Origin: Raillietiella orientalis
Lineage: Eukaryota
NCBI GenBank assembly: GCA_036172245.1
Contig: JAYWIR010000036.1
Coordinates: forward strand, 558,001-622,000
Direction: 5' to 3'
DNA: 64,000 nucleotides
Shown: positions 2,094 through 64,000 of the stretch, in pieces
Numbering within the stretch: position 1 is the first letter of the stretch
How the letters are laid out: each line of letters begins with the position of its first letter
Made by a program: the position numbers and the translations under genes
Notes under the pieces: generated by a model
Database searches by the model: none
What the model was told of the DNA's origin: nothing
Seen by the model: the letters and a program-made list of their open reading frames with translations, nothing else

Positions 2094-3535
2094 CAAATTC
2101 GATGTCCACAACTCCACACTGTTCAGCTGTCATGTCTTCCAGCACACCTGCTTCTTGGAGTGCTAGTTCTGCTCTTGTAGGTAAGTTTGGCAGTAATAGT
2201 TTTTCATATTGGCTCTTCTTCTCAAGGTTCCGTTTTCGTTTGAGTTGCTTCCTCAGCTTATCGTTCTTCTTCATATCTTCAAAGAAGACCTGCCGTTTTT
2301 GTGCTTTTGTTATTCTGGAATCAGTTTTCAGCAAGTGGAAAAATACTCCTCCTGGAGTGCGCCTTCTAGTGCCATCCTAACAACACATCTGACACACTCT
2401 TCTGCATTCTGACTTCTTACCAGAGTCATCAAGCCACCACTGTTTTCACATTTTTGTGTTCTTCGCAATAGCTCTACTGCTTTCTCCTTGCCCAGCACGG
2501 AAACCACCTTTGCTACATTCATGAGAGGAACATAAAAGGTCAAGGCTACTGGTGGAAGTACTCACTCAGAACATCAGATTTTGGTTCCTTCAAGTGCTCA
2601 GCTATTGCTGAAGCTATTTCCGTATCGTGTTCCAAAAACAATATCTGATCAAAGACTTTCTGTGCTGGATCTGTAACTGTCTTCCTACAGAATGGTCGAG
2701 CAGTTTGATCCACCAAAGGCACATTCATTCTACAAAGTGGCTCTTCAACATAATAGCTCTCCACATCTCTGTTATTGAACTTTTTTTGATCAAGGCAGTT
2801 CATGCTACTGCATACAGTATTCAGGTTTTCTTCATAAATCACAGATGCCCAGATATTTCTGGAGGCCCTTTTGGTGCTTATGGAATGGTTGCTTTCCATC
2901 TTAACTTTTTTCGTGGACACATCCTCAGCAGAATCATCATCTGACTCATCATCATCAGACTTCACATGAGAATCAGGTTCCTTAAAATTGTCTACAGCAG
3001 CTGGTCGTGGGAGAGGTTCATAAGTTGTCTGCAAGAACATAGGCAATGTCACATGCAAGGTAATGGCAGAAATAGGAAGCATTCTTGGTGGATCTTTACA
3101 GAACGTTTGCTGCTAATGTTGATGCAAGTGGAAGATGGGGGTGTATTTTTCCCATCACTTCCTTACCATGCTACTAAAGTATGCTGGGATTGCAGGAATG
3201 CTTTCATGTTAACAAAGCAGTGCTTTATGTTAACCTGGTTTGTATGCTGGTTGCTTTGTTATGAAACCGACTGAACCTGTCACGTAATGGGGTTTCTGCT
3301 ATCAATTCTACATTTGTAGCGCGGAGTTATCGTGGATACACGAAACATGAGAATGACACATCCTGAATAGGTACAAATTTAGTCTGCTTGTATGCTACAT
3401 GGCAATCCCAAATTTACATTTTGATAACCAATGCCGTAAACAAACAACGATAATTGAGAAAATCGCAAGGGACCCCACCCCCTCCTTTTCTCTTTGTTTT
3501 TTGCTTAATACCTCAATGAAATCGGTATCTGCCAT
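2089..3535 (-). CDS. PHAX: Phosphorylated adapter RNA export protein (PHAX)
   Basis: Exons 3535-3512 (putative first exon MADTDFIE, phase-0 GT donor), 3028-2566, 2512-2421, 2376-2089 sum to 867 nt. Contains NIWASV, RDVESY, IAEHLKEPK and the PHAX RNA-binding signature GGLMTLDGTRRRTPGGVFFHLLK. First exon is inferred. Confidence 0.88.
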
Positions 3536-4679
3536 GCAGCCACTTCGTCAAGACCACCAGCACACCAAAAATGAGTTTAGATAACTTCACACGAACTTTT
3601 CCCCTGAAAATGATACATTGAAAGTGATGTGTAAAACTGCATAGGTTCACTACGCTCTACTTTTGCAGCGAAGCGCAGCCTGCAGCATAGTTGTCTCTTT
3701 TAAACTGCCTCACGCGCATGGAACATAGCAGTGCCAACAACATCGGTCGTTCCAATTAATTAATTAAAATAATACGAATTTTAGGAATACATCTAGTTAA
3801 TTCAGCGTGCATCACCGAAACAATAGTTTTCCTATGTCTGCAACAAATTTCAAAGCGTTTTATTTTAGTTGTGCCCATGAATGCCGAGTTCATCAAAAAG
3901 TTTCGACCAGAAACTTTTTTACAGGTGAAAACCAATACATCAGCAACTGTTGTCCTAACAAATTTTGTTAGCATGGATTCGAATATTTCTGTTTGATAAA
4001 CTGAAATACGAATTGGGAAATGCAACTGAAACATAGTAACTAACAAAAGATTGGTATCAATAATGATCAGTGATTGGGAATCAAATTCATAATGTACCCA
4101 CAGTGTGAATGATCGTTCATAACTACCACATGGAGGAAGTGTAGTATAGGAAAAGGCAAAGAAACCTCCCTTGTGAAACCGTGAGGGTCTTTAAGTGCCA
4201 TGGGAGGAGTAGTGCAACCAGACGCGTGGAAACGGGCCCTTGGTCGGGGCTGGAAGAAGTGCGAGGCACTTGGCTAGTGCGAGGCACGAGTATTTGATTT
4301 TCCTTGAATCCCATTCTCTTTATGAGTGGATGAGAATCACTTTCGGAAGAAAGGAAAGCAACCCTGGAACAAGCTTGTTGATCTCTTTCTCCTGAATGAA
4401 CATTGCGCAGGTCCTTGCAGCACCCTAATGTAGAGGATACATCCTCTAACTACATTCTGAAAACTCCTTTGGGGACACCAAATGCTTGAGTCTCCCACCA
4501 GAAGCTACAGCTGCAGCAAAAGAAGAACCCACTCCCCACTCGGATTCTCTACGTATAGTGCCAAACAGATGAACCTGCTGGAACAACTGAAAGCAGCAAG
4601 TGTTCGCCTTAACTCTTTCTCTGCTTCAGATCACCATGGAGTGCTGGCCGGTGTGGATCAGGACTCCAGCTCATGCCGG

Positions 4680-5410
4680 TCGGAGGCTTTGTGGTTAAGG
4701 CTTCCGCGCGTGGCACCATGCGTCGCGGGTTCGAATACTTCGGCAGATAACTTGACGCCATTGCGTCGTTTGGGTTCCGAGTTTCTCCTGCAACGGCGCT
4801 GGTTGGCCGAGACATTCGGGCGTGGCCCCGGCGGTGGATAAAGCCGGCGGCCTCCCGATGAAGGCCGGAACAATGGGAGTCGACTTTCGGGTCCTCCCAG
4901 GAATAAAGGAGTGGGGAGTTCCCCCTCCTGTGTGCAAAGGAGAGTGGACCCCCGTCACCAGGGGGACCGCCTCCGGTTTCAAGATGGAGCAGGAGCCCTC
5001 ACGGGCACCTCTCCAGTCGTTCAAAGGAACGGACCCCCCTGTTGGGGGGTCCCTCCGAGTCGTCGCCTCTTCACAGAGTGTGTACAAAGGAAAGAAGCTA
5101 AGCGAGAGCGATTCCCTGCGGGAAGCTGCAGCGCCCCTTCTGAGTTTCGGAAGCACCCCTGTGGGGGTTGTCTTCAGAGGAGTGAATAAAGGAGCGGTTC
5201 CCTTGCGGGTTCCCTCCGGAGAAGAAATTCCTAGAAGCGGATCCTTTCCGGGTTCCCTTCGGAGAAGTTGAAATGGAGAGGACCACCACCCCGCAAGGGG
5301 AGGTGTCCCTCCGGAGAGAATGAGGAAGGAGAGATTCCTTTCGGGGTTCCCCTTCGGAGACAACCAGGGTGGGAGGTCTCCTGGACGTCTTTCCGGACGT
5401 CCAGGAGAGT
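4680..5410 (+). mobile_element. tRNA-headed SINE-like repeat, copy 1 (longest)
   Basis: A-box-like GGAGGCTTTGTGGTTAAGGC and B-box GGTTCGAAT (4728-4736), then a hairpin-rich body. Collinear with 6847-7110 (+) and 61049-60470 (-). Confidence 0.7.
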
Positions 5411-5899
5411 GCACGAGGCAGAAGACCGACAGCCGCCTACGCACTGGAAAAAAGGTATTCGAGAACGATGGGGAGTTGGCAAGCAGAAGGGATCCTGCCC
5501 ACGGAGCGGTGACCCCACCTGGGCGCAGCTGTCCCCGTCAGACTTCTTTGGATCCCTGCCGAGGATATCATTCTGCGTTTTCGTGCCCACCCACTTCCTG
5601 CTGGCAGCAAGAGGCATGACTCTTCCTTCCGGGAAGTATGCGTAGCCCCTGACGGGGCAGCTTGGACGACTGGTGAATCATCGAAGACCAAGCGAACGAA
5701 GAGAAGAGGCAAGGACTCTCGGAAGAAGAACAGGACAGGACAATCACTACATCCAGGGTTTCCGAGGAGCTGCCCGTTTAGGGTGGTCCAGCAGTAAGGG
5801 AATTCCATGCAGGGTCGGATCCAGCCGAAGGCAGGTCCTTGGGGCAAGCCCCTCTTAGAGAAAAGACCAGGACTGTGCAGGAATAGAGGGATGCAAACT

Positions 5900-6560
5900 C
5901 ACGGGTAGGAGAGGGGACCCGGTCGACCTGCCATTGGATCCTTGCGAGATGAAGGGGATTTCTTTCCCTTTCGCGACCCTTCTCAGAAGAGATCAGTTCC
6001 ATATCCCGGCGCCGGGGAAACGGCCAGAGGAACAGCTGCAACCACCTGGTGCCTCCGACCAAGGTCCCGAAGGCTGCTTCCGCGTCCCTGGAAGCTGGTC
6101 GGAAACCACGCAGCCACCGTACCTTGCTGACCTCACCTAACCTACCCGAAGAAACACTTGCTCGACCCGACCTGCACGAGCCTGCGTGCCGACCGAGTCT
6201 ACCTAGGGAATGACCCATTCATACAGTGCTATCCATGCTAGCATGGATAGCACCTGAATCGCGGATCCGCACGTTGCTCCTGTGTGGCTCCCGATGGAGC
6301 ACCGCCTCAGAAGCCAGAGAGCTCACTGCTGCCCAGGGGCCTCTCTTACAGCGCACACCGACATCACTGTACCCGGAGGGAAGAACCCGGAGAGAGGGAA
6401 TCACCCTGTTGCCCTCTGACCCCTACAAGAACTTTCCGCCGCGATCCCGCACGTCCCGGTTGGCAACCCTAGGGAGGTTTCCAGACTCTGCACGGGAAGC
6501 GGCGAGCCTGGTCGCCTTCGAGGCGGTCTGAAGCGACGCCGGAAGACGACAGGGAGGAGG
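5900..6560 (+). mobile_element. Decayed CR1/L2-like LINE ORF2 3' portion
   Basis: Relic peptides RVPGSWSETTQPPYLADL (like GVPQGS..P..Y..DL), IRTLLLCGSRWSTASEARELTAAQ and C-terminal RFPDSAREAASLVAFEAV* (like LP..V.A.SL..FK). Frameshifted. Confidence 0.4.
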
Positions 6561-6846
6561 GGACGGCATGCGCCTTCCGCAGACGACCCCGCCTGGGAAG
6601 CTTGCAGAAGGAATCTACCGGAGTCCTGGGAGGGATGCAGCAAGTGCCCCTGAGCAAGCTGAGATCCCATTCCGTATCCTCCACCCCTCAGAGGTTTTTT
6701 TTTCTTTCAATTCCATCTTTTTGTTTCTCCTCCCTCCTCCGCGCTGTCGAGGTGACCTCGCTGGTCTGCCTCCCTTCATCTGAACAGTTTCCTTGCATGA
6801 ACGGGAGTGGTAGGACAACCCGGCGCTACCACCACGGCGGCCCGCT

Positions 6847-7110
6847 CTGGCGGCTGTACGGCTGCGGCCTCTGTGCATGGCATCGCGGGTTCGAATCCCG
6901 TCCGGGGAAGCATCGACGCCGACAAAGTGGGATGCGACGTGGGTTTCGAGTCCCCACCCCCACCCTCTACCTCGCAGCATGACACTGGTTGGCCGATTCG
7001 GCTGCGACACCGGTGGAAACCGGAAACTCCTGGGTGCCCCTGTTAACTGGCCTCCGGGATTGGAAGTCGAGCCCCGGGGTCCTCCCTGGACATCAAGGAG
7101 CCCTTCGGGG
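6847..7110 (+). mobile_element. tRNA-headed SINE-like repeat, copy 2 (5' part)
   Basis: B-box GGTTCGAATCC at 6888-6898. Shares CTGGTTGGCCGA, TGCG.CGT..GGGTT.CGAGT and AGTCGA...GGGTCCTCCC.GGA blocks with copy 1 in the same order. Confidence 0.65.
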
Positions 7111-7779
7111 TCTACCTGTCTGCTCAGAAGCATCCATACTTTCGGCTTCACCCAGCTAGGGAGTCGACCCTCCCTCTCTGCTCCCTCCTTTGACTTCTCC
7201 ATCATACCCCCCCTTTGTGTAGGGAGCATCGCCCCCCGGGGACCAGGAGGAGGAGGAAGCGACCTGCAGGTGCGCCTTCCGCTCGATCCGATCCCTCCCC
7301 GGAAGCCTCTCCGCGGGTCGTCCCCTGCCCCAAAAGGTCCCGGACTCTCAACGGAGAGAATGGGCATGGGTTGGCGCCCCCGAGCTGCGCGGGTTCTTCC
7401 TTTCCTGACCATCAATACCGAAGGGTCTTTCCCATCCCACCGGACGCACGGGCTGGCCATTTGCCCAAGGCAGATGAGCGCGCGCTCTCCCCCAAGGAGG
7501 ACACGGTCAGCCAGGGGCGTGAGGAGGAAGGGCGCGAACCTCTTCCTCGGGCAACTCTGACCCTGCCTCGTCCTTCCCTCGTGCCCGCTCCCGTTCCGCG
7601 TCCTACTCGCCCATTTTGTACCTGAAATTCAACGAGTCTTGTGTGTGAGGTCATCGTTGCCATGGGCACCTTCCTCTTCCTCCTCCTCCTCCCTTACTCT
7701 TCCTCCTCCCTTCTGCTCCTCCTTTCCCCACGCACGCGTGCACACCTTCTGGCTCTTCCCTTTCCTGCTAGTTCCTCTC

Positions 7780-9700
7780 CGAGAGCACCTTCGAAGATCC
7801 CGGAGGATCCCGTATGCCCTCGTTCCTCCACCGCGAGCAGCACAGAACCCTTCCTGAAGCTGCTCCAGACGTTCATGAAGAGCTGCTTGCCCGACCACTT
7901 CCCACTCAGCCCCCCTACCCCGGATTACCGGGCCATCTCTTCCACGTGGACTCACAAGGATTCGTGCAGCGAGGGAACGAAGGTCCAGGAGTGCCCGGCT
8001 GGGAAGGACGGAAGGGGCCGCCTCCGCTGAGGGTAGGACAAAGGAAAGGAGTCAACGAGGGAGCGGGAAATGGGACCGAGAGGCCTCATCGTGACGGGCG
8101 CGCGGGCCTGCGTAGGCAGTCACTCTAGCTGGTCGTCCCTCAGCGTTCTCGAGGACCCTATGCCCCGGGTGGAAGTCCTCTCTCACGGCTTCTGGCTCGC
8201 AGCTGCGCGCTCTTCCTACGCCCCGGCTGTCACTGCCACCGACTCTCAAGAGATTAACCGTGCCGCTTCTCTTCTGAGACCTCCGGTGCCTTGTTCTCTC
8301 CCACACACACCAGCGCGCGCCTCCCTTCCGTCTTCCCCCCGCGGCGGCGGTTCTGGCCACTCCCCGCTAGTCCTCGAACGACGACGCATCTGTCACAAGC
8401 TGGTTTCGGGCACGAGGGCCGACCTCATGGGGCGGCTTTGGACGTCTGACCCGCACTCTCGCCGACCTACGATCCGGGTCAGAGCAGCTGTGCATTTCGG
8501 CGCCTTCCACGAGCTGCGTCTTCTCTCCTCCACCTTCTGCTGCGGCTTCCCGGAGGCAGGTAGAGGGAGGAAGGCATGACCAGCATTAGGAGGGTGCTCT
8601 GGCCCTGCCCGAATCCAGCCGACCCCTCCGCGATCTCCGCATGGTCACCGCGCTCCTCCTCCCCAGCGCTCCACTCGCCGGTCACCATGGAGGCGGCCCC
8701 GTCGGCACTTCCGCTTTCAGTCTGACATGGTGCGGCGCCCTCTCCGACTTTCTCGGTCGTCGGCCTTGGGGCGGCCGTTCCCTCCGTCACGAAGCCGTCG
8801 CGAAGGACGCTGCCGTTGTGCAGGGCGCGTCCGCTTGCCTTCGCCGCGGTCCGGTGGACGGGACGGAGGCGCTTTTGCCGGGCAATCCTGCGATCCTCTC
8901 CTGGGTGAGGTCCTGCTGGGTCACCATTCGCCGCTTCCAGGAGAAGTGGGGGAGCGGTGTGTCGGAGGTCGCCGTTGCCTCGGCGCCATCACCCTTGCTC
9001 ACGCGTTCCCCGTCGGCAGTGCCAGGATCTGGGCAACGATGCCGCCTCGAAGCGACGGAGGGAGGGGTCGGTAGGCAAGCGAGGTGTGGGGCGACCCCCA
9101 TCCCCGAGACCACGCTCCGTACGCGAAGGGGGAAGGAAATGGGGGGTGGCCCACGGTCCCAACTCGTCGGCAAACGCCCTGAGGCGACCCTCCTCTTCGC
9201 CCGATGGCTCTGCTGCAGGTGGTGGGAGGCTCCCGGCAAGCTGTGAGTCCGGAAGAGGGCACCTCTCCCAGGCTCATCGTCAGGGGACTCGGAGCATCCC
9301 GGGGACGCTGTGGGCCTGGAGAGCTCGAAGAGCTGCTGCACCACTGGCGAAGGAGCGGAGGCGCCTCCGGGTGTGCCTTCGGGTGCGCCTCCGCTTTGCT
9401 CTACTCTTCCTACTCCTCTTTGCCCGACCACCCTGCTTCGCCCATACTGCTGCGATCCCGGTGGGCACCCTCAGGCGGTCGAGCACGCGGAAGGAGTGCC
9501 ATTCCCGAATGCCGCCATCTTGCTCCGCCTCTTGCGCCGAAGAGTGCCCTCGGCGGTCTTTCTCCGCCCCCTCGTTGACCTGGAGTCACTCCGAACCGTC
9601 TCCTCTCGGCGGCGCCCGCTCAGCCCCGCGGATCGAGCGTGCGCGGCAGGGTGCTTGAGCCTCCCGCGATGGCCGCCAGGGCTGCTACCATTGCTGCTGA
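7780..9700 (-). mobile_element. Decayed CRE-clade-like (restriction-like endonuclease) non-LTR retrotransposon: RT, zinc finger and RLE relics
   Basis: Minus-strand relics in the expected order: GRRKTAEGTLRRKRRSKMAA (like RPIAVG..LRRL.SK), SPGCSESP (QG.P.P), RLRAFADELG (9160-9190, RT motif), SLYLPP..EGGG, SGEW, RH/VN..EP..DFHPG..GRPA, WTFVPSLHESL, LHERL..LQEG. Many frameshifts. Confidence 0.5.
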
Positions 9701-11760: not shown

Positions 11761-14048
11761 TCCTCCCTCCCTGCCCATTCGCCGTCCGGGGGGGGGAGCA
11801 ACGACACAGCAGGTGCCTCTTCCCCCTCCGATGGACGGGACTCGGATCCCCAAAGTCCCCCAGCTTGTTCTTCTCTGCGCCCCCGAATGCTTCCACTATC
11901 CAGGAGGCTCTGCCCCTCCCCGTTCCTGCAGGAAGCCACCCTTCACAACCAGAAGCGGTGGCGTCCCTGCCGTTCGCGCTGCCTTTTCCTGGTGACCCTG
12001 ATTCAAGGACGCAAGTACCTTTCCCCTTTCGTACTCATCTCGGCAACACGGATCAGGTCAATTGTCACCTTCACGGATCCAGAAGGAATTCCTTTTTCCT
12101 CCTTTTCTTTACCCTGAGACCGGAAAGTCCACCAACAAGTCCGCAAGTGACCTCCGGCTCATGTGAGCCAAGTGGGGACCAGGTGCGAACAGCACTCTGG
12201 ATGCTCGCTTCACAGATATGGTCTCTTGGACCGCAGCTAGCGCGCTGCCCGATCCTTTTCCTTCATCACCCTCGTGTTAAGCGTCCTGGGGTAGGAGGGA
12301 GGAGATCGCTTCGTCGGTTCAGACCATGGACTCCATGAAAACCACAGGGTTCAGTCAAGGATTGTGTCATCTCAAACGAAGTGTCATGCAGTGATGATGG
12401 TCTTATTGCCTCTTCAAGCACGAACAGTGGTGGTTTTGGAAATTGACCTTCCCAAAGTGTACCCTCGACCGGCGACATCTCTATTTTCTAGTAAGCGCTC
12501 TTTCGTATCATGAGCGGAATTCATTCCTCCTGGTCTTCTAGCGCGTGCACTGATTAATGCTGATGAGTGCTCTGGAACTCCTTTACGTTTATGTTCATCC
12601 AAGATGAACGAAACATGGAAACCAACTAGAATCAATGCATGAAATGCGGAGATTGACTCCTTTCGCTCAAAACATCAGGTTCTGATGCAAAGCATGCTCT
12701 GACGATGCAGGAGCACACATTCTGAAGAACACGAGGATTTTTTTTGTTGCTAATCGCCAATCAGGAATCCATCAGTCTATTGAGTTCATTTCAATTGCTC
12801 ACTCTCTGTATCGTAAATACCTTCTTCATACTCTTTTTCGAATATTACTGATCCTTATCCCTGATTTTGGACACGAACTTTTTCGAAAAGCGCGTTACTA
12901 AATATTCATTATAACTATCTCCTGTAGGTATCTGTGGAAGACACGTGAAGCACGATAGCTATCAACTAACACTTGACTCTTCAAACAAATGGATTTAGAA
13001 TTCTTATTTGTCCTCCTAAGATGAGCCCTAAGATTAATTCTTTAGATTCTAATGAAGCCATATAATGGCTGTAAATTTGAAATGGAAAAAATTACAATGG
13101 AGATTTAAGAATTAGATTCAAAGTTCTGTTTACGTTTTAATGCAATGAAGACAAATGTATAAATAAAAAACAGGAAGCTCTGTCAAATTTTCATACTCTT
13201 GGCATATCTTAAGCTCAAATCGTCAGTAGAAAAATAAATATGCAGTTGTTTAACCAATTATGTCTTTCCTTCTGTATGCACAAAAAATAAAGATTTTAGA
13301 TTGAAAAGGCAATAGAAAAGGAAAAAAAAAAGGCGTACATTCAATGATTAATGTTATTCGAACAAATGAAAACAATGCGCTGAAGAACGAAAAGTCTGAA
13401 TTTTATAATGAATTTTAACTTCTTTCAACCATCATGTTCGTCTTTAAGAAGTTATTAGGAAATTTGCTGTAAAGTGAAATAACTTCCGTTGCATGTGTTT
13501 TGTGTTCATGTTATTCATGTCTTTCTAGAAGATTAATGATCTGATAACCCTGCAATTTTGATGCTAACGCGCTATGGGTTTCGTTTTCTTTGAAATGATA
13601 TAGTTACACTGTTGTGTGTTGTGTGCAGTTATTGCTTTAAAGATGTACGCATTGTTTACTTTTTTTTTTTTTTTTAAATGACGTGAATATTATGATGTTA
13701 AATGGGGAACGCACTTAATGTAAATTGGTAGTTAGACCTGATTGCAACCAGAAATTTTAAGCAATGCTGTTTTATTTGGTTTGTTTGAAAAGAATACGCT
13801 TTTATAATTCTGTACTGTATGTTTTGATTAGAGTGCTAATTGGATTATTAGGGGCTCATCAGTATTTGTAGCATAGTTCGATGCAATCGTTTGAGATTCA
13901 GTTTTGTTTTGAAAGTCTTTTCATGTACGATTGATGAGTGCTAAAATTTTGTATCCAGATTTCAGGAAATGCTGGCATAATAAGTATTGTGCACTTACAT
14001 TTTTCAGTGATTAAGTTGAATTATTAAAGAAGTACTTCAATCACAATA

Positions 14049-14330
14049 ATGAGCGAGAACAAACAAGATGCAGGAGACACCTCAAACTCAGAATACATAA
14101 AGTTGAAAGTTGTGGGTCAAGACAGCAATGAAATTCATTTTCGAGTGAAAATGACAACTCAGATGGGGAAGTTAAAAAAATCTTACAGTGAAAGAGTTGG
14201 AGTCCCAGTGACCTCTTTGCGATTTCTATTCGATGGAAGGAGAATAAATGATGAAGAAACACCCAAACAGTTAGAAATGGAAAATGACGATGTGATAGAA
14301 GTTTATCAAGAACAGACAGGAGGGAACTGA
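14049..14330 (+). CDS. SUMO1: Small ubiquitin-related modifier (SUMO1/Smt3-type), 93 aa, single coding exon
   Basis: [32 protein letters not shown]...[10 protein letters not shown]...[12 protein letters not shown]-terminal di-Gly plus one residue; AATAAA about 100 nt downstream. Confidence 0.96.
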
Positions 14331-19949: not shown

Positions 19950-21900
<1,951 letters not shown>

Positions 21901-25810: not shown

Positions 25811-28800
25811 ATGGCTTCAGGAACAACACATACTTTCGCAACTGCCAAACTCATAGATCTTGGTAGTCAGACACCTTCAAAATTAGTCAATCACATTCGA
25901 CCCAGTTCAACTGAAAGAAACGTTGCAGGAAAGTCATTAATTCCTTCAAGCTCATTGTCCAATGCTGATATAAAAATAAAGTCATTAGTGAGTCCCTGTT
26001 TTACATTAATTTTATGTTAGTAATGATTTCTGAAATTGTATACTGCATGTGTTTGAAGGTTTCTAAACTGTCTTGCGGATGAATTGTTTTCTTCATGCAA
26101 TTTTGTTGCGTACAAACTGAAAGATCCCTGTGTATTTCCCCCTCCCCCTGATGACATGCTACCATTGTCTTCTGGTTTCTGTTATTGCTGAGGGTGCATT
26201 CAATTACTGTACCATAGTTTATTAACTCCATACCGCCGCCAGAATGTTGCTTACAGAAAGTGCTTGCCCGGTCGATTGTGTTGGCGCCCCGAGATTCGGA
26301 GTTCGCAAAAGCGCTGATGTATCGAAATATGAAACCGTGAGCCCATGAGCTTCAGAAGAGCCGAATATTTCAAAGACAAGTAAAAGTAGCCAAAAGCAGA
26401 TATTCCCCGGGAATTACAGTCGTTCGTGGTCGTTGCATCGTATACTGCGGTTGCCGGATCTGCAGCGAATGCTGTTGTTTCCTACCGGGCATGCAACACT
26501 TAGCATTTGTGTTCCCCGGTAGCGTCGAACCTCGTTCTGGAAGCGTGGTCCGCTCCGAAGTCACCAAAGAATATTAGTAGAGCCGTTCCTCAAAAGTGCC
26601 TCACCTTCGTAAGCTGTAAACCTGAAAGATGCCCGTTTTCCTCGCCAAACTTCGAATGTACAGGGGTCGTCCAGCGAACGGTGGGAACTCGTGTACGATC
26701 CGATCTGCTGGTAGTGTAAACGTATTCGCCACATGCAAGCAGAGCTTTTGTTATTGAGGTCGGATTCCGAATCAAAGGTCAGCATGGCATTAAAAGCAGC
26801 GGCTTCCTGCGTTGCATGTAAAAGCTCGAGTTCTTAAGCACATGGCGAATTTCGTACGTCGAATGTATCTGCACGTGAACGTGTCCTTCAAGACGGGTCA
26901 CCCGTCGGCAGTCCCAGTTCGTAGGCACAGAATAGGTTGACCACGTGCCACTTCAACGCTAACCGAAATGTAATTATGCCTGCAGATACTTCACCCTAGT
27001 TCCTGGAAATGGGTGGACCATGTTTATTTAAAAGTCAGCGAAAAACTCGAACTCGTGATAGCCCTTGCGTGTCTCAGAGTTTAGGCAAGAGGGTGTTGTT
27101 TCTTATGATAACTTTGCGAAAAATGGATGGCAACCGATGGGGAGGACAATAACGACCCCCTGTCGGAGTTTGTTAATTCTTCCGGACCAATGCGCCCCGC
27201 TTGTCATTCCGATGGCTCTTACTGGGCCGTTCGAGCAGGAATCATTGCATCAAATATGAAAGTCATCAGGAAGGTGGTATCATCAGATCGACTCCGAAAA
27301 AGTGTTTTTTCCGTGTTGGGACTCCACCAACCTTGCGATCAAGCATTGAGAAACTCCAGGGAAACAGAGGAAGCCAGCAATACGAAAGTCGCGGCCTAAC
27401 CTGGTCAGCTGCACGCGAGAATAGGCATTCCATCATTTCAAAGGGTGGGCAGAGAGATGCTTCAGTAAGGAAGTTTACTCAGAATGACACCTTTGCCGAG
27501 GACGGATATCGCAAAACAATCAGGTCGATAGAATGAATTTTTTATTTTTTTTGTTTTAACATAAAAAAGAACGGTAGGAGACTAAATTACGAAACGCACT
27601 CGATGAGGGAAACAACTTTTCGTTCCGTCCGATTGTGAAAAAAACCTGGGTTACAAAAAGAAACGAAACCAAAATTTGAAAAATTGTTATGTCCAAGGGC
27701 AGCCTCGTAATAGAACGAATTGCATGTTAAATGTCGATCTCAAGTGTTCATTTATGATAGTATTAGTAATCAGTAGTCAAAGTGGTTTGTAAGGCTTAAT
27801 CGATAGAATGATTTGCCACTTATTATGGGACTTTTGCAGGATTGAAATTTTTATTTTTTGCTTCAAGTGGTTTACTGTTTATTTTTGATCATGCTTAGCC
27901 ACCTGCAAAGAGAGATCTGTATTATCGAAATGAGCACGGTTTTCAATCGTCGTTAAGTAATGGGCCTTCCTCATTGCCTCCCAGCATCTCTGCAAATCCA
28001 TCACCAAGTATTTCATTAAGCTCAACACATTTGATATCTTCATCATGCACACCACTGAAAGAAAGCATAGGAAGTAAACCAGAAAGCATCAAATCGAAAG
28101 ATTTGACGGATCAATCCTGTACAAATGACTCATCAAGAAAATTGAAACAAACTGGTGGTTATGTTGGTTTTGCCAATCTTCCCAATCAGATCTACAGAAA
28201 AGCTGTAAAAAAAGGATTTGAGTTCACTATGATGGTAGTAGGTTAGTGCTGCAATTAAGCTCCGTTTTAAGTATAAACACTCCCATCATCTTAGGAGAAT
28301 CCGGATTAGGCAAATCTACTTTCATCAACTCCCTGTTTTTGGCAGAGATTTACCCACAAGAAGACTTAGGTACATCACACAAAATTAAACAAACTGTCGA
28401 GGTGAGTGTTTTGTTTTTTATGGATTCAGTTGAGGCTTTGTGTTCAGATTGAGGTGAAGAAGGTGCTTCTGGAAGAGAATGGAATAAAACTAACTTTAAC
28501 CATTGTTGATACACCAGGATTTGGAGATGCCATAAATAATACTGAGTGCTGGCAAGCGATAATAAATTATATTGAAAATCAGTATGAAGAGTATCTGAAC
28601 AATGAATGTCGTGTCAATAGAAAGCAGGAAAGTGATGGAAGAGTCCATTGCTGCTTGTACTTTATTGCTCCAACGGGCCATGGACTAAAGCCTCTAGATG
28701 TGGCATTCATGAAAAACCTCCATGATAAAGTCAATATAATCCCACTGATTGCCAAAGCAGATACCATGACTCCATCAGAATGCAGTAGTTTCAAAAAACA

Positions 28801-30378
28801 GATCTTAGCAGAAATGCAGAAACATGAAATTTGCATTTATAAATTTCCCAACTCCATAAATGAAGATGATGCCAAACTTCAGCAAGTACTGAAAGACAAA
28901 ATACCCTTTGCAGTAGTTGGTTCCAATACTATTATTGACGTAAACGGAAAGAAAGTACGAGCTCGTCAGTATCCTTGGGGAGCTGTAGAAGGTAATTGGG
29001 AATGAACTCACTCACTCACTCATTCTATTCAGTGGACAATATGGAACATTGTGATTTTATCCCACTGAGAGATATGCTCATCCGCACATACATGCAAGAT
29101 ATGAAGTTCGTCACCAACACAGTCCATTATGGAAACTATCGTCTGAAAGCTCAAGGTGGCACAGCAGCATTTAAAGATTCTAACAAGTAAGCAGTTTCTT
29201 GTGCAGTTTTTTATTTGGCAGTGCTGAGAACTAAACTGAATGTAGTTTGTGCCTTCAGACGATTATGAATGTTTTCATGGTAGTTTGGTGAGTATTGCTT
29301 GGTGTGCATGCTGGTCAGAATGTGCAAACACATAATAAATATCACTTGCTAAATGACTAGCCATCTCTATTTGCAGGAACCCATTAGCTCAAATGGAAGA
29401 AGAAATTAAGGAAAGGGAACTTAATCTGAGAAAGAAGGGACAGGACATGGAGCAGGTCTTTATTATGAAAGTTCGAGAAAAGAGTCAGAAACTTAAGGAC
29501 TCTGAAGCTGAGGTTGGTGCTGATTTTGAGTCACCAAAGTGAATAGCAGCTTCGCCAGTTAGTGCGTCAGCATGAACAGATGAAACAAAGGCTGGAGGAA
29601 CAGAGGAAAGAACTAGAAGAGAAGCAGCAACAATTCAGAGAAGAAGTAAGACAGTGGGAAGAGGCCAATGGTGTGAGTTTAGAGGAATTGCGACGCAAGA
29701 ATTTGGAATCCATCTCCAAAGAGTGAGCATTGCATCAGTTAGCCTGCCTCCTATCTTTTCCATCCTGTTTGCTTCAACTTTTGCTTTCCATATTAGTTTT
29801 GGTGATGGGGAGAAAGACTTCAGGCTGTCTCCTTCTCATATCTATAGGAAAACTTGGTCTTTGCATTGGGGTGGTAAGAAGCTTGTTTCCTGAAAGGTGA
29901 GCAACCAAGATTTTAGCTGCACTGTCATCTTCACTCAAGTGCACTTGCACTCCGCCATCATTCCTTTTATGTTTATTCTGTTGCCATGATTTTCAGGACC
30001 ACTAAACCTGTAAACCGTCTCTCCCGACGTGTTTCAGCTGTCCTTAGGGAAAGCCAACAGCGCTTCAATGCATTTAGCATGCGCAGATTCAATTCTGACA
30101 ATACTGGCTGCATAGACCATTAATCCCTCTCTGTCTGTTGACCTTCCCTGTCATCCAACTGTATGATCGACTATTCAATATGATTTATTTGTTTATCAAA
30201 CAGAATAAATGTGCTTTGTTGAGCATTATTTCCCCTCATGTTGCTGTCTGTTCCATAGTGAATGTTCTGCATGCTCAAATCATTGTGATTACTTTTGTGT
30301 ATCACACAGTGAGCTAGCTAGTACTTTTTCTTTTCTAGTTCAATGGACAGTAGAAAGAAGAAAAGGGGGTTGTTCTGA
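25811..30378 (+). CDS. SEPTIN7: Septin-7 (peanut-like), about 554 aa
   Basis: Exons 25811-25987 (inferred first coding exon), 27899-28241, 28295-28401, 28448-28991, 29033-29186, 29377-29512, 29559-29722, 30339-30378 sum to 1665 nt. [11 protein letters not shown]-loop [25 protein letters not shown], coiled coil, C-terminus [14 protein letters not shown] at 30664. Confidence 0.93.
29997..30123 (+). CDS. SEPTIN7: Putative alternative terminal coding exon of septin-7
   Basis: Acceptor ttttcag at 29990-29996 in the phase required by the donor after 29722. Stop-free 41-codon frame [41 protein letters not shown], with its own AATAAA at 30204. Confidence 0.55.
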
Positions 30379-36033: not shown

Positions 36034-38812
36034 ATGAAGCTAGTTAGGCAAGTAAACTTAAATACTTGGCTAAAATTATTGTTTAAGCTCCTCTTGGTGA
36101 TTAATTATTGTGTTAAATGTGTAGCCCTTTTCAAGTGTAAAATGCTTTAAAACAAAAAATTTGATTGTGAGGAATCTGTGTATCAAAAATAATTATTAGA
36201 ATTGTTTCTTAAAATTTATTTGAAAATATTTGATATCTTGAATGCTTTTGATTGTACATATGCACTTAATTCAAAGTTTCCAGATTCTTAATGAAGCTCA
36301 GTCATGAAACTGTAACAATAGAGTTGAAAAACGGCACACAGGTCCATGGAACCATAACAGGTTAGCTTGTTAAAACTATTCATGTATTGAAAATTACAAA
36401 TATTGTCAACTGGGCAAGTATTTCTTTGAAAAACCAATTTATCATGTTGGTTGTCCATTCAAGTGTAAAGTATATTGTAGAGATGTACCAAATTGACTTT
36501 GTGAAAGTATTAAAAGATGTGAAAATTGTTTAAATGAAGAATAATAAAGTAAGAAAGACATTAAAAATTATGTGAAAATATTAAAATTAGAAGAATGCAA
36601 AGTTGTGCAGATCAATTTTCTTTGGATCCATGTAAACATGGGATTAAAATCTGTTATTGAAACTTCAAAGTGGCAAATTCTCAATGTTCATTATTAAGAT
36701 TCATTGAATCAGTTACTCGCTCGATAGAATTTGGAGAATGGCATTACAATAATAATGTAATTAATCTTTCCGTTTAATGTATTTATATATGGTATTATAA
36801 AATGTAAATAAGTATACTTTTAATTCAATTAATCTCTAAGAATTCTTAAAGAACTGCTTTAAGTACTTCGAGGATAATTGAATTAAGGTCATATGGAATG
36901 GAAGTTTCTATAGGTACAGGACAATTGATGGAATGAAATAATCAAGCTTTGAAATGTATTTTGCAAAAATTGTACTGCTATAGTGGTGAGTTCATACTTT
37001 GGATTTGCCTTATGTTAGATTGCAACATGTAAAAACTAACAAATTTCATCTTCTTACCTATGTGTACGGTATACATATTTCTATATTCTTATATAAAAAT
37101 GTGATGCATGCAGCAAAATGATTATGGGGCAAATCATAGACCAAGATCACTTTGTGTCGAAAATTGAACTTTTATGAAAAATATGAAACTTTTAGGTGGA
37201 TTAAAGCATGTTTGTCTGCATTTCTCAGAATAGGAGATAGGATGCAAAGCAAACTCTAAACTTGTTCTACCAGTTGGAAGTTAGTTAGCTATACAGTTAT
37301 CTTTAACACTCTCGCTGCCTCTCTTTCATCCCAGTTCTCACTAGCTTGTATGCATCAAGTATTCACAAAATGGTAATCAGCAATTTCTACTCTGGCTTAA
37401 TTTTTCATGGACCAATCCAAGTCAGAATGGTGCCATAACTGAATTGGAACATCTTCTTCCATGCACTTCCATGCATCTTCTTCCATGTTTTTTGTCTCTC
37501 GTTCTTGTTTTTCATTTGGTTACTTTGTAAAAACCAGTTTATTACAAATATTTGAACTGAATCCATATGTGTGAATGTTACATACTTTTCAAGTAGTCAA
37601 AAATGCATTGTAAATAATTGGAAGGGAAAAAAACATTCGTTTTTTTCATATAATCTTTTGTGTAATTCTAAATCTAAGGTTTAGTTTATTGCCATTTGAT
37701 CCCAACCTGTTTGATAGTGAGCACATTATGATACCAATTGCTATAGGATTAGTATTCAGCATTTGCTCACTTTCTTAAGCTCTTCTGCAAGCTTGGAATG
37801 CTGCCTTGTACACCTGCAATGAACCATCTTGCAGGTGAACCACAGTTGCTTGATAAGTTTTTTAGGTTTATTTCATGGTCGCTGTTGTAGATTCTGGGGA
37901 AAAGTGAATAGGAAATAAAATTTAAAGTTGTTAAAGAAATAAAATTAAAACATATGTGAACAGAACATGGAAACCAGGCATATGTGATACCAGTAGCATT
38001 AAAAACAGATGGAAAAAGCTGTAAAGAAAGCAAATTGTGGATGTAATTAGATCAGCTTGTTAATTTTGTATTGTAGGATTTTTTTTTAAAGATTCATGTA
38101 CATAAGAAGGAAATCATGTCTTAACCAGTTTAATCATATGAGTTGATAATTTAGCATTCCTTGTACACATGTGCTGCCTTTTTTATTTATGTATTCTCTG
38201 AGAGTTCATGTAAATATTTATGACTGCTGTTTCTGCTATCAAATTAATGAAAGTTTTAATTTTGAGTCCATTGATCAACATGCTCCTGATACTGATTGTA
38301 ATCATAAGGTTAGAACATGTAAAAATAACTTGCATCATTGTTTTGTTGTTAAGAATCATATTATTTGAGACTCAGGCGCACTCACTAAAAAGATAAGTGT
38401 GATTGGTTAGTTGTTTTCAGAGTAAAGCTTTTATCAACAGTTTGCTTATTGTGTATTTTGTGTTCATCCTGTTTAGGAGTGGATGTTGCAATGAACACCC
38501 ATCTAAAAGCAGTAAAGATGACAGTGAAAAACAGAGACCCAGTGCAGCTGGATACACTCAGTATCCGTGGAAACAACATTCGCTACTACATTCTTCCCGA
38601 CTCTTTGCCCCTGGAAACTTTACTGATAGATGAAACACCTAAAGCCAGAGCAAAGAGAGCAAAAGAAAAAGGTAATGCGTAAGGCTTTCTATTGACAGCA
38701 TCAATTATGTATTCTAGTTGCTGTGAGAGGGCGAGGTAGAGGACGAGGAGGACCACGTGGACGAGGAGGACGTGGTGGAGGTGGTGGCAGAGGAAGAGGA
38801 GGACGTCGCTGA
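36034..38812 (+). CDS. SNRPD1: Small nuclear ribonucleoprotein Sm D1, 126 aa
   Basis: Exons 36034-36047, 36284-36360, 38477-38671, 38718-38812 sum to 381 nt. [65 protein letters not shown]-repeat tail. Intron 1 has a GC donor. Confidence 0.97.
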
Positions 38813-59300: not shown

Positions 59301-62300
59301 CTGCGCGGCTTGTCCTCCAGGAGACATCCACCTCCATTTTCATTCTTCGGGGAAACCCCAGCAGTCTTCATGCTTACTCGCAGCTCTGTCCATCGTCTCG
59401 AAGGTAGAAAAGGCGTCCTGGATCGCGCTCCACTCCTTTCTTCATTAGGGAAGGGAATGGTTCCACCCATGGGGCGCAACAGCATCACGCTCCCCAGGGA
59501 CTGCCTGACCGACGCGGACAGAGAGAGGGCGGGGAACCCCGCGTAGGAACACCCTCTGGAACCCGTGAAGAGGGAGCAGCTTCAGCAAACAGTTGCTATT
59601 GTGGCGGAGCAGCTGAAGGCTCGAGGAACCCACCGATCCTCAGAGCGAACAAGAACGGATCGTCAGTGGCTTTGCCGGAGAACTTCCAGAAGGACGGGTC
59701 ATTCAAGGCTCCGCATCTCCATAATTGGACGTGCATGCAGCAGCTGGAGTGGGGGAGAGGACAGCAGTGGCAGCAGTTCGCCTTTGAGTGAGGAGGAAAG
59801 GGGGTCCCCCCGGAGAGTTGCTGGAGGAAGGCGAAATCTGAAAGAAGACAGTCAGAGTTTCAGAGAAGGGTTGAGGAATTTTCCCGAGGGTGCGAATGCC
59901 GCCCCTTAGAGGAGGAAGAAAACTCTCCCTCTTAATGGAATAGATAAGATCCGATGGCAGAGCAGCCAGAAAGAGTCGGCCGACTCTTACCAAGAATTCC
60001 ACGGATCGAGAGACGTCGCACCGTAGGAGATGGAAATACCAGCGTCTCCCTTTCCTCCTTCCTAGTTCTTCTCTCAATCCGAAACGCCAATTCTTTCCGG
60101 CAGTCCTCGTCTTAGGTCGCGTAATCTCGTTCGGACTTTCTCCGAACCCTGGCGTCAAACGCGGCAACTGGCAGAATACTCGACGTGACACGGCGACATA
60201 AGCTAAGGCAAAAGGCGCGAATACGTACGTGCACGGCAAGGTGCATCCTTTTCTCCCTTCATTCTTCCTCTCTTTCCTTTGTTATTCCTTTTTGTGGTTC
60301 GCTAAGTACCTCAAGCACCGTCGCGCGTCTTGCGACTCACACTCTTTAACGCTGTTCCATGCCACCCGAGGGTGCGTATAATTCTTCAAGATAGGGGGCA
60401 CCCCGATAGGGGACTACTCTATGAATCCAGGAAGGGCTTCAGAGAAGGGAGTCCGTTCCTCTCATGCCTGGGAAGGAATCTCCTTCCTTATTCTCTCCAG
60501 AGGGATCCCTCGGAGGAAGGAGTACTCCTCGTTTCTTCTCCGGAGGGAACCCGGAAAGGATCCGCTATTGGAATTTTTCTCCGGAGGAATCCTCAAGGCA
60601 ACCGCTCCTTGTTACTCCTATGAAGAGAACTCCGAAGGAACGCTTCCCAGCTGCTCTGAAGGGAGCTCCCCGAAGGGAGTGCACGCTTCTTGCATACTGG
60701 AGAGCTGTCATCAATCCACGAGATCCATGGTACGCGATGGAGGGTCCCTCCTGAGGAAGAAGGGGACGTCTCCTTTGCACAACCAGAGGGAAACCCCGAA
60801 GAGAACCGGTCTCCTTGATTGTTTCCTGGATGGACTCCGGAAGGTCGACTCCGAATCTCGGCACTAATCGGGAGTATCCGGTTTCATCAGCTACCAGTGC
60901 CGCATCCGAATATAGGCCAACCAAGGTCATCTTGCATGAAGAACTCGAAACCCACGACGCACCCATTTCTCTGGCATCGATTCTTTCCGAATATTCGAAC
61001 TCGCGATGCTTAATGCTACGCGCGGAGACCGCAACCATATGGCCTCCGATGCGGACGCCTGGCAGCTCTCGCTTTTTAGTTTTCTCGAGAGTGTTGCTTT
61101 TTTGAACGCGTCTTGTCTTTGGAGAGGAAACGCCTTTCCTCAGCGACGCCTTCCCACGTGCTCCGGGTGGTTCACAGCGATGCCCTGAGAGGAAGCTGCA
61201 TGGACTCTTCGCACCGAATGCGCGTATCTCAGGAGAAGGCTGCGTGGATGTGGTGATAATCTCAGAATGAAGGGACCCCGCAGAGATCCGCTGCAGCACT
61301 ACCTCTCTGTGCCTGAACCTGTTTCTTCAGGCTTCCAAGAAGCTCGGGAATTCGTCAGATGCGCTCCCGAATTGGGAAGCAGCAGGTCCGGCTCCGGACG
61401 AATTGAACCGTCGAAGAGAGAAACGGAAGTGCCTCTCCGGATGAGTCTGCAACGGCGGCGGAGGCAGCTGCAGGAAGACGGGACGGCGCCGAGTCCACTA
61501 AGAGAAAGGCAGGAGAAGGGGAGAAGGCAGAAGGCAGAGGGGGGTCCCGGAGAAAGGGTAGAACCGAAAGCACGTTGTGAGAGGAGGAATGACCGCTCCT
61601 GGCCATCCTTCGTCTTGCTCCTGAAGAACAACTGGGCGCCCTAGCAGACCACCTCATAAAGGAAGGAGGGAGGAACAGGGGAGAGACCCGCGACATGCTT
61701 CCTCTACCTCAGCAGTAAAACAGGGGGACCCGTCTTTCTCCTCAAAGAGAAGCGGCCGCGAGGAGCACCTGCGAAGGACCCAACCGAGGAGGGCAACGGC
61801 AGCTGCCATCCCGCTGCTCCCTGAGGAACTGTCCCATCTCCGAGGGGCGCTTCGGCGGGAAGGTCAATGAGTCCGAGGAAGCCAAGAGGCAGTGCTGGAT
61901 CCCCCTTGAAATGACGTCACGGAAGTGGAGGGAGGCAGGCCAGTAGGATGCAAGGCGAGGAAAGGAGGAAGTCGAATCGGAAAGAGGGAGCGGAGGTCGC
62001 CGTCGCCATCGCCTTTGCTTTCGACAGAAGGGACACCGGGAGAAGAGGGAAGAGAGGACGCGTTCTACAGTGGTCATCCTTCCCTCCTCGCTCATCCTGC
62101 ACGCCACTCAGTAGCATACTCCCTCGATCAACAGGGGAAGAGCGGTTTCCGCTGCGGGGGGCCTTCTGGCTAGGTAGGCGGGTGGTGGGTTGAGGAGTCG
62201 GGGTGAAGGGTGGGGGAAGTCCGTGATATCCAGGACTCCTTAATGCGGTAAGGGTGAGGGTCGCCGACGACTCCCCGAGACTTCCGATGCCATCTGCCAG

Positions 62301-63515
62301 GAGCAAGTGCCACGGGGGCAGCGATCGCATGGGGTGCGAGAGAAGGCAGACATCGAAGTGTCCGCACGCGGTGCGATCTGGTCTGCTCCTCTGTCAGCCG
62401 GGGACGAGGGGACTGTGCGTCCGTCTGACTCGCGCTGCCGCCGCGATCACTTGCGCGCGAAGCCATGGGTCTGTTGCCTGCAAGGAGCGCTGACTCCCTC
62501 CCCCCCTCACACCCTGCTCGTGCGCGGATACCCCGTGAGCGTTTCCTTCCTTTTGGCTTAGAGGGTGGGAGCGACCAGCTGACGTCTGTGACGCCTCTTC
62601 CGTCTCCTAGGAGACCCCACGGTTTTCGGCAACCTGAAAGCGTGCGATGAGATCGTGGAAGCTGTCATGGAGGTGGTCCAGAGTGGGAAGCACAATGGCT
62701 ATGCCCCCAGCACAGGTAAGGAGGGTCGGTAGGCGAGAGGGGCCGGTGTCCTCGACCTTCCTGCCCTTCCCTCCAAGTCGCAGGCTCGTTTGCTCCTGCC
62801 GGGGGGGCCTTCGGGCACCAGCTACGTGAACCGGAGAGGGGGAGGCGGCGGCCCAGCCTGGAATGGACAGGGAAAGAGGAGGCGGGTCCCAACCGAAGAG
62901 AAGCGCAATTTGGTACTGTTTTCGCTCTTCTTGCAGGCATCCCGGAGGCAAAGGAGGCCGTGGCGAAGTACTACCGAGACAGCGGCCTAGTCAACGTGGA
63001 GAGTAAGGTGAGGGCGGCTTCCCCCTCGCGGCGCCCCCCGGGGACCGGGGAGCATCGCGCAGCCCAACTACCGGCCCAGCAGCACTGAATGCAGCATCTC
63101 TTTTTTCTTCTCCTGTCCAGGACGTTATCCTTTGCAGTGGTTGCTCCTGCGCGCTGGATCTCTGCATCATGACCCTGGCCAGCCCTGGGCAGAACATCCT
63201 AGTCCCGAGGCCGGGGTTCTCCATCTACAAGACGCTCGCCGAGGGGCTGGGGGTCAGGACCAAACCCTACCGCCTCTTTGTGAGTTTCGAGGTCGGGATC
63301 TCTTCATCCAAGGACCCTTTTAGCCGGAGAGAGACTGGGAAGTGGATGTGGACCACCTGCGGAGCCTCATCGACGAAGACACCGCGGCTATCGTTATCAA
63401 CAACCCGTCCAACCCCTGCGGATCGGTGTACTCCAAGGAGCACCTCCGCAGTCTGCTGCAGGTCGCCGATGAGCACAGGGTCCCGCTGATCGCGGACGAA
63501 ATCTACGAGTACATG
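56302..63515 (+). CDS. TAT: Tyrosine aminotransferase, 5' five coding exons; gene continues beyond the window
   Basis: Exons 56302-56434, 62611-62715, 62937-63007, 63121-63279, 63324-63515. [98 protein letters not shown]. Confidence 0.96.
58300..59650 (-). mobile_element. Decayed L1/Tx1-like RT relic, antisense in TAT intron 1
   Basis: Minus-strand [31 protein letters not shown] resemble RGV.QG.PLS and ..F...GL.+N..KT. Frameshifted. Confidence 0.4.
60470..61049 (-). mobile_element. tRNA-headed SINE-like repeat, copy 3 (in TAT intron 1)
   Basis: Minus strand TCGGAGGCCATATGGTTGCGGTCTCCGCGCGTAGCA..CGCGAGTTCGAATATTCGG aligns with copy 1 (4680-4744). Homology continues through TGTGCAAAGGAGA, CTCTCCAGT and GCGGATCCTTTCCGGGTTCCCT.CGGAGAAG. 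Confidence 0.75.
61700..62500 (-). mobile_element. Probable GC-rich LINE relic (endonuclease-adjacent region), possibly the 5' part of the 58.3-59.6 kb element
   Basis: GC-rich and coding-like, with weak APE/post-EN resemblance ([21 protein letters not shown]). Confidence 0.25.
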
Positions 63516-63589
63516 GTGAGTCCAGAAGGGAGGCCCGTGGGAAACGGTCCGCCGCTTGGCGTTTTCCTTCCACAAGAGCGTCCTGCCCC

Positions 63590-64000
63590 ACATTGCCGGC
63601 GCCGCTCCTGCGGCTGGCGTCAGCTCCTCCTCCTCACATCGCTACCGTTGCTGCTCCTCTCCCCGCTTCATCTTTGCTCGTTTCTTGACGCTGTGACGCG
63701 CTCGCTGCTTCTGCGTCCACCGCGAGCACGCGTCACCGCCACTCCTGTCAGTTTTGGCAACGTTGGTTCCAATCATCGTTGGCTGTTGCTCATATCGTTA
63801 CTCTCATCACGATCACGTTGTCATCCAGGATTAGCAATACTCTTATTATAATTATTTATTGTTATTATTATTAGCATGAAGCGTTTTGTTACTGCCTCCC
63901 TGTTGTTCCTGTACTCTACTTTCATCATGCCTTTTACTTACCTTTGTTACTGCCCTTCTTATCGTCACATCTGATACTGTTATCCTTGTCGTTACTACTA
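63590..64000. repeat. Degenerate trinucleotide low-complexity tract in TAT intron 5
   Basis: ctcctcctc, gctgctc, ttattattattag and gttactacta; period-3 mosaic like 9720-10340. Confidence 0.55.

Follow-up and report, generated by a model that had tools for sequence, protein, structure and literature searches.

A Dispersed, Non-coding Repeat Family with a Common 5' Boundary, a Partly tRNA-like Head, and a Hairpin-Rich Body in an Arthropod Genome

In the 64-kb stretch of DNA analyzed here (the window), we identified a multicopy, dispersed, non-coding repeat family, three copies of which (A, B, and C) have a common 5' boundary, and the predicted secondary structure of these copies is conserved between them and favors the + strand of copy A. 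Our preferred reading, to which we give about an even chance, is that they belong to a family of long, structured, SINE-like retroposons that would be transcribed in Pol III fashion from their head and then retroposed in trans. The copies and their parts are as follows (coordinates are those of the window; box motifs were judged against the general consensus).

4680-5410, + strand: copy A, 731 nt with 24 local hairpins (counted with a 45-nt span limit), the youngest and best-folded of the three
4671-4749, + strand: tRNA-like unit 1 of copy A, called by ARAGORN only at -ps80
4684-4694, + strand: box A-like motif AGGCTTTGTGG of copy A
4728-4736, + strand: box B-like motif GGTTCGAAT of copy A
4680-4900, + strand: conserved 5' domain of ~240 nt, common to A, B, and C, mean column identity 73%
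4900-5189, + strand: body part 1, GC-rich hairpins with purine-rich spacers (..CAAAGGAG / AATAAAGGAG)
5031-5052, + strand: hairpin GGACCCCCC-tgtt-GGGGGGTCC, in body part 1
5190-5376, + strand: body part 2, four degenerate 43-52-nt units, each a short hairpin followed by TCCCTYCGGAGA
5289-5300, + strand: hairpin CCCC-gcaa-GGGG
5377-5408, + strand: perfect 13-bp hairpin, in copy A only
~6831-7110, + strand: copy B, the most diverged, with the motif GGTTCGAATCC at 6888-6898 within a cloverleaf-like unit at 6831-6909
6939-6957, + strand: second T-arm-like motif of copy B, GTGGGTTTCGAGTCCCCAC
61058-60470, - strand: copy C, old, and collinear with A from the head and 5' domain to the hairpin modules

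The earlier note on this DNA had described three collinear copies at these positions, and all three were recovered by blastn and nhmmer. In a blastn comparison of 4000-7600 with the window, A matched C in two segments, with 76% identity across 192 nt (E 4.9e-28) and 68% across 237 nt (E 2.7e-12); the match of B to C had 69% identity across 160 nt (E 2.1e-7). With copy A alone as the nhmmer query, C was detected at E 1.2e-48 and B at E 6.6e-6, and everything else in the window scored at E 0.009 or above; A/C was also the single non-self pair at E<=1e-5 when the whole window was compared with itself by blast. The pairwise likeness of the three copies is 64-76%, and their flanks are unrelated. 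Globally aligned, A and C are 64% identical over 613 aligned columns (a divergence of 36% for C) and collinear from the head to the last hairpin modules, with 83 nt of A (about 5066-5148) absent from C. The common start lies at 4680 in A, 6847 in B, and 61049 in C, and the claim that the copies share this start without homology upstream of it holds, save for a weak likeness of B and C (about five of nine bases agree), beyond which nothing aligns. A covariance model of the 5' domain, which covers 163 positions of the first part of the element and was built from A, B, and C, so that these match it by construction (E<=1e-33), found no fourth copy in the 64-kb window (next best E 2.2). A seeming homology of 5624-5657 with 60435-60400, next to copy C, was discarded, its score of 21 being below the shuffle maximum of 26.

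The copies lie among exons of several protein-coding genes, all read from stop-to-stop ORFs:

271-1965, + strand: exons of RasGAP1 with C2
2092-2561, - strand: exons of PHAX
14028-14327, + strand: exons of SUMO
20090-21788, - strand: exons of a ubiquitin-conjugating enzyme
28222-29187, + strand: exons of a septin
38389-38679, + strand: exons of an LSm protein
63007-63848, + strand: exons of an aminotransferase

The best 120 matches of a RasGAP1 exon were all from arthropods, with 54-63% identity and Odonata first, and the best identity of a septin exon (septin-7) was 68%. With at most 63% for RasGAP1 and at most 68% for the septin, we concluded that the DNA comes from an arthropod that has only distant relatives in the protein collection. 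Three septin exons fall within 1 kb (28222-29187), separated by very short introns, and these short introns together with the close spacing of the genes suggest a compact genome. The GC content is a sharp mosaic of 55-65% at 4-12 kb, 50-66% at 42-64 kb, and 30-44% between them, and all three copies are situated in GC-rich parts. The GC-rich block at 4.6-12 kb has no Pfam domain in its ORFs of at least 60 aa and no internal repeats beyond the copies. Two further features of this block lie outside the element: a perfect 28-nt palindrome at 6226-6253, between A and B, which is its own reverse complement at 100%, and a T/CT-rich low-complexity stretch at 6685-6729, just 5' of B. Several contigs of one public sequencing run (the second of the two described below) cover this stretch and diverge on both sides of it, and it is probably a separate simple repeat.

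Evidence from public sequencing data indicated that the family extends beyond the three copies. Among the public runs listed, only two, from two studies and neither of them RNA, share words with 4300-7500, in small shares of 0.10 and 0.06, and we compared their contigs with 3000-9000 at a likeness of at least 80%. In the first run, one contig of 955 nt aligns to 4688-5377, differing there by 12 substitutions and 7 gaps; one end of it lies at 4688, and beyond 5377 it continues for at least 255 letters that are unlike the window. The second run yielded 90 pieces, of which 8 are at least 99% identical to the window, 14 are 95-99%, 29 are 90-95%, and 39 are below 90%, these contig counts and the corresponding depths being no measure of copy number. 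One 222-nt piece matches 4684-4826 and carries 61 unmatched letters beyond 4684, and 11 contigs with loose ends leave copy A at 5372 (seven) or 5377 (four), with at least two different continuations; position 6923 of copy B is covered by at least five contigs of the same run. Cover in 3000-9000 is almost confined to 4608-5411 and 6618-7220, and we did not count the blank elsewhere as evidence. The family is thus dispersed beyond the window, with contigs of 80-99% identity and unlike sequence at both ends of A. Since the runs could come from the source species or from a relative, the contigs show dispersal and the shared 5' edge, and nothing more.

The contigs are also informative about the consensus of the family. 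All or nearly all covering contigs of both runs differ from the window at the same four sites (4885 T>C, 5018 C>T, 5029 A>G, and 5339 T>C), which indicates that A carries a few private changes; we take A to be close to the family consensus, and the contig bases at 4885 and 5339 complete CTTCGG loops. The continuations of the contigs past 5377 are self-complementary around a TTCC-type loop, like 5377-5408 of copy A, and their stems differ. Such differing self-complementary stems at one and the same place fit either selection for a hairpin or the creation of hairpins by template switching. Searches of public collections with a 20-mer common to A and C gave no viral match, and the one metagenome match of this 20-mer was dismissed as chance because it lies inside a bacterial gene; a composite pattern of 25 bases drawn from the 5' domain had no match in viral contigs or in genome contigs.

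The head had been described as tRNA-like with an A box and a B box, a description that stood in part. Box B fits the consensus exactly in copy B (GGTTCGAATCC) and reads GGTTCGAATAC in A and GAGTTCGAATAT in C, and a box A-like motif lies ~44 nt upstream of box B. In copy B, GGTTCGAATCC sits in a 5-bp T-stem, and the second T-arm-like motif follows 50 nt on. At -ps90, ARAGORN made two calls in the whole window, namely the head of B (6831-6909), whose acceptor stem has 7 bp and whose T-arm around TTCGAAT is perfect, and a unit at 4925-4998 in the body of A; at -ps80 it made 46 calls in the window, which is the noise level. Thus, the box motifs, the T-arm, and the relaxed ARAGORN call in B agree with the description, but ARAGORN at default settings found no tRNA in the window, and Rfam at E<=10 found no tRNA, 5S, or 7SL RNA over 4500-7400, over 60200-61300, or in the 151 nt around the head of B. 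At the gathering score no Rfam family matched, and the best Rfam match in those 151 nt was the tRNA-like mascRNA model with 14.6 bits. A cloverleaf, by which a tRNA gene or pseudogene would be recognized, was returned neither by default ARAGORN nor by the Rfam tRNA model. A tRNA ancestry of the head is putative and is suggested by the T-arm with its box B, the box A-like motif, and the one relaxed ARAGORN call.

The second T-arm-like motif of B hints at a dimeric tRNA-related head, which would be further degraded in A and C. In the body of A, the unit at 4925-4998 has a CCCCC/GGGGG stem with the loop GTCACCA, like an anticodon arm, followed by a GGTTTCAAGAT loop; C has no counterpart of its T-arm. 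It could be another degenerate tRNA-like unit, the third, or a chance product of hairpin-rich DNA. Runs of four T are a stop signal for Pol III. On the + strand, the first TTTT comes 898 nt after the start in A, 767 nt in B, and 836 nt in C, and the fractions of dinucleotide shuffles with a first TTTT as late were 0.004, 0.30, and 0.036, respectively. This late first TTTT fits Pol III read-through, of which it is no proof.

Downstream of the head, the motifs TGGTTGGCC, ATTCGG, and AGTCGA of the 5' domain occur in all three copies, and GGAGTCGA occurs in A and C. The body, ~500 nt in length, is composed of short GC-rich hairpins, many of them UUCG-capped. Every one of the hairpins that had been named beforehand (5031-5052, CCCC-gcaa-GGGG, and 5377-5408) is present, and a reported internal repeat of roughly 40 nt was borne out as a degenerate 43-nt repeat: the units of body part 2 are spaced by 43, 52, and 43 nt, contain TCCCTYCGGAGA four times, and are collinear with C. 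We also considered whether the 43-nt modules are duplicated T-arms of the head and rejected this idea, the likeness being not significant (26 of 300 shuffles reach it).

Copy A is predicted to fold far better than chance. With a minimum free energy of -349.6 kcal/mol, its + strand lies at z -5.6 relative to dinucleotide shuffles (-303.5, sd 8.2), and its reverse strand has a z of -4.45. For C, z is only -2.0, and for the B region as a whole it is +0.64; the neighboring DNA gave values of +0.67 (5500-6230) and -0.57 (5411-5585) near A, and +0.88 after C. When perfect short hairpins were counted per 2-kb bin, the bin of A had 9 against 3.7 expected and that of C had 8 against 4.8, and the other GC-rich bins were near or below expectation (at most 1.6 times). 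The excess folding therefore belongs to the element itself and is no general feature of GC-rich DNA in this genome.

The fold is also kept between the diverged copies, with the reservation that the structure tests use three sequences only and that the alignments tested are also those used to predict the structures, a circumstance that favors the structures in the controls. With RNAalifold, the consensus of the head (first 240 columns, three copies) reached -43.4 kcal/mol, compared with -27.5 (sd 3.6, best -41.0) for 100 column shuffles and -27.6 for the reverse complement, that is, the - strand. In this consensus, standard pairs fill 152 of the 162 cells, and 32 of these 152 are G-U. In a 182-column alignment, 91.7% of 132 cells are paired, compared with 39-45% when the partners are slid by 1-3 columns. 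As to compensatory changes in the stems, which had been named as a check, 5 of 44 pairs in this alignment change on both sides, a value that 16 of 500 shuffles reach, and exchanges of G-U for G-C are seen between copies. The body consensus of A and C has -95.9 on the + strand and -86.7 on the - strand, and its shuffles have -64.6 (sd 5.0). The loops likewise read as UUCG on the strand set by the head, as had been proposed: in element orientation, the 1,645 nt of the three copies contain CTTCGG 7 times and CCGAAG 0 times, TTCG 20 times and CGAA 3 times, and AAGGAG 9 times and CTCCTT once. Together, the consensus energy, the G-U pairs, and the asymmetry of the loops suggest that the structure is that of an RNA with the sense of the + strand of A.

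Several hallmarks of transposition were looked for around the copies. LINE-mobilized retroposons are expected to have target-site duplications and a partner LINE. The earlier note had held the element to be mobilized by a neighboring LINE clade and had looked toward target-site duplications; no duplication of at least 8 nt was found around A, B, or C, and the window has no sign of a LINE, since none of its 494 stop-to-stop ORFs of at least 60 aa that were scanned (110 + 150 + 150 + 84) has a reverse transcriptase, endonuclease, integrase, or transposase domain. A retrozyme-like nature, also suggested there, found no support in Rfam, where no ribozyme family matched 4500-7400 or 60200-61300 at E<=10. 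No A-rich or simple-repeat tail was present at or after the end of homology, and TRF returned no row and hence no tandem array in the window. The sequences downstream of A, B, and C are not alike, and the DNA after A and C is not unusually folded; the 3' end is thus undefined, and the missing tail may reflect truncated copies. As for coding capacity, no ORF over the element matched a Pfam family, and two candidates for a coding reading were rejected, a 280-aa ORF on the - strand without relatives and a 171-aa ORF on the + strand with one weak match (E 5.8e-6) to an unrelated 891-aa repeat protein. With no relatives for the ORFs over it, we concluded that the element is non-coding.

We then compared the element with known systems. 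According to SINEBase (PMC3531059), a SINE is a non-tandem, interspersed repeat that is shorter than 700 bp by definition, or shorter than 1 kb as a working criterion, and that shares 60% or more identity with a tRNA, 5S, or 7SL RNA across a stretch of 60 nt or longer. Its architecture comprises a head, a body, and a tail, the last consisting of simple repeats or a LINE-derived 3' region, and boxes A and B are an indication only. The same source reports 175 SINE families with lengths of 75-662 nt (mean 253 nt) and notes that internal tandem duplication occurs in SINEs, for example in the CHR-2/CHRS variants (PMC3531059). The element resembles SINEs in having a head and a non-coding body, box A- and B-like motifs, a T-arm, and interspersed copies of graded divergence, and possibly also a dimeric head, judged from the second T-arm-like motif. 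It differs in length, copy A having 731 nt and the contig of the first run at least 955 nt, as opposed to 75-662 nt in SINEBase (PMC3531059). From this contig, the family consensus is at least 955 nt, at or over the length limit of SINEs. The element further differs in its body, an array of ~20 short GC-rich hairpins, and in that no tail of the SINE kind, no LINE-like 3' end, and no target-site duplication was found at A, B, and C. We therefore call the element SINE-like and not a SINE, its membership in the SINEs being not established. Among the matches listed in literature searches, none described a SINE with such features, which is no claim that none exists.

Other structured or composite elements were also compared. 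The SVA elements of hominids are transcribed by Pol II, end in a poly(A) tail, and combine Alu-like and SINE-R parts. The element may be likened to SVA-type composites in being non-autonomous, in being ~1 kb or more in length, and in having a conserved 5' part and a GC-rich tandem region of 35-50-nt units that varies between copies; none of the Pol II, poly(A), Alu-like, or SINE-R features was seen in it. Retrozymes and Sm-alpha-like SINEs are hammerhead-bearing, structured, non-coding, repeated RNA elements of invertebrates. The element is equally structured, non-coding, and repeated, but has no match to a hammerhead or any other self-cleaving ribozyme family in Rfam at E<=10.

In the preferred reading, the head would act as an internal Pol III promoter, and the resulting transcript of 0.7-0.9 kb, free of an internal T4 stop, would fold into the array of hairpins, which a reverse transcriptase provided in trans could turn back into DNA. 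The fold would be maintained by selection acting on the source genes, and inserted copies would decay, as A (z -5.6) and C (36% diverged, z -2.0) may illustrate. Several observations argue against such a SINE-like retroposon, namely the lack of a tail, of a target-site duplication, of a reverse transcriptase domain, and of an Rfam tRNA match. In addition, 5' truncation is usual in LINE-driven copying, and copy A keeps its 5' end but parts from the public contigs at 5372-5377, which is the opposite pattern and also counts against this reading.

This pattern is as expected if the copies are the 5' part of a longer element independent of Pol III, such as an SVA-like composite, a non-coding LARD- or LTR-type element, or a LINE UTR, and the likeness of the head to a tRNA is incidental. 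The contig of at least 955 nt, with at least 255 letters past the end of its match with A, the 5' end that is common to the copies where the 3' end is not, the Rfam tRNA model that never matches, and the GC-rich 43-52-nt tandem units that recall a VNTR region all agree with such an element. We nevertheless consider it rather unlikely: no coding remnant adjoins any copy, box B of copy B is placed in a proper T-stem with a second T-arm-like motif 50 nt later, the + strand avoids T4 runs, and the DNA just 3' of A and C does not recur in the window and lacks structure.

Two further explanations dispense with retroposition. The copies might represent a host gene family with its decayed members, not mobile as such, whose long and structured Pol III RNA has a function in the cell (e.g., as a protein-binding scaffold). 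The 90 pieces of the second run, ranging from below 90% to above 99% identity, have what looks like the age spread of a transposon family, the older copies mostly lack excess folding (z -2.0 for C, +0.64 for the B region), and no Rfam family matches, all of which makes host RNA genes quite improbable, despite a + strand fold that is kept at 64-76% likeness with G-U to G-C exchanges and five double-sided pair changes, the many C(UUCG)G loops, and the absence of insertion hallmarks among those looked for. The hairpins could instead be a product of DNA mechanics such as template switching, in a DNA-level repeat of the kind of a MITE, a Helitron fragment, or a palindrome-rich minisatellite. Both strands of A beat their shuffles (z -5.6 for + and -4.45 for -), and the terminal hairpin varies between copies yet stays self-complementary, as such a repeat would have it. 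It has against it the strand asymmetry of loops, G-U pairs, and consensus energy, which points to RNA, the absence of an array by TRF, and the absence of terminal inverted repeats, since in local alignments of the 5' end with the reverse-complemented 3' region the observed score was reached in 153 of the 300 shuffles made of A and in 273 of the 300 made of C; we hold it to be highly improbable, the least probable of the explanations weighed here.

More speculatively, the family could encode a Pol III-type RNA of 0.7-1 kb with more than 20 UUCG-capped mini-hairpins and purine-rich AAGGAG spacers, in which the stems turn over while each hairpin persists. Such an RNA might be selected as a scaffold or decoy for an RNA-binding protein or the RNAi machinery, or might represent a new class of long structured retroposons that is recognized by its hairpin array and not by a tail; we regard this proposal as very improbable.

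With the SINE-like retroposon as the preferred reading, the element stands out in its class by its length and its array of hairpins, and no new mechanism is in evidence. If it proves to be a SINE, it would rank with the longest known members of that class and would show that a Pol III-type element is able to carry a body of ~500 nt made of stable mini-hairpins; otherwise, it would be an ordinary lineage-specific repeat. The terminal hairpin offers a small natural test case for how hairpins arise and persist, whether through RNA-level selection or through template switching, and the family would supply a repeat marker for an arthropod lineage whose relatives in the protein databases are all distant.
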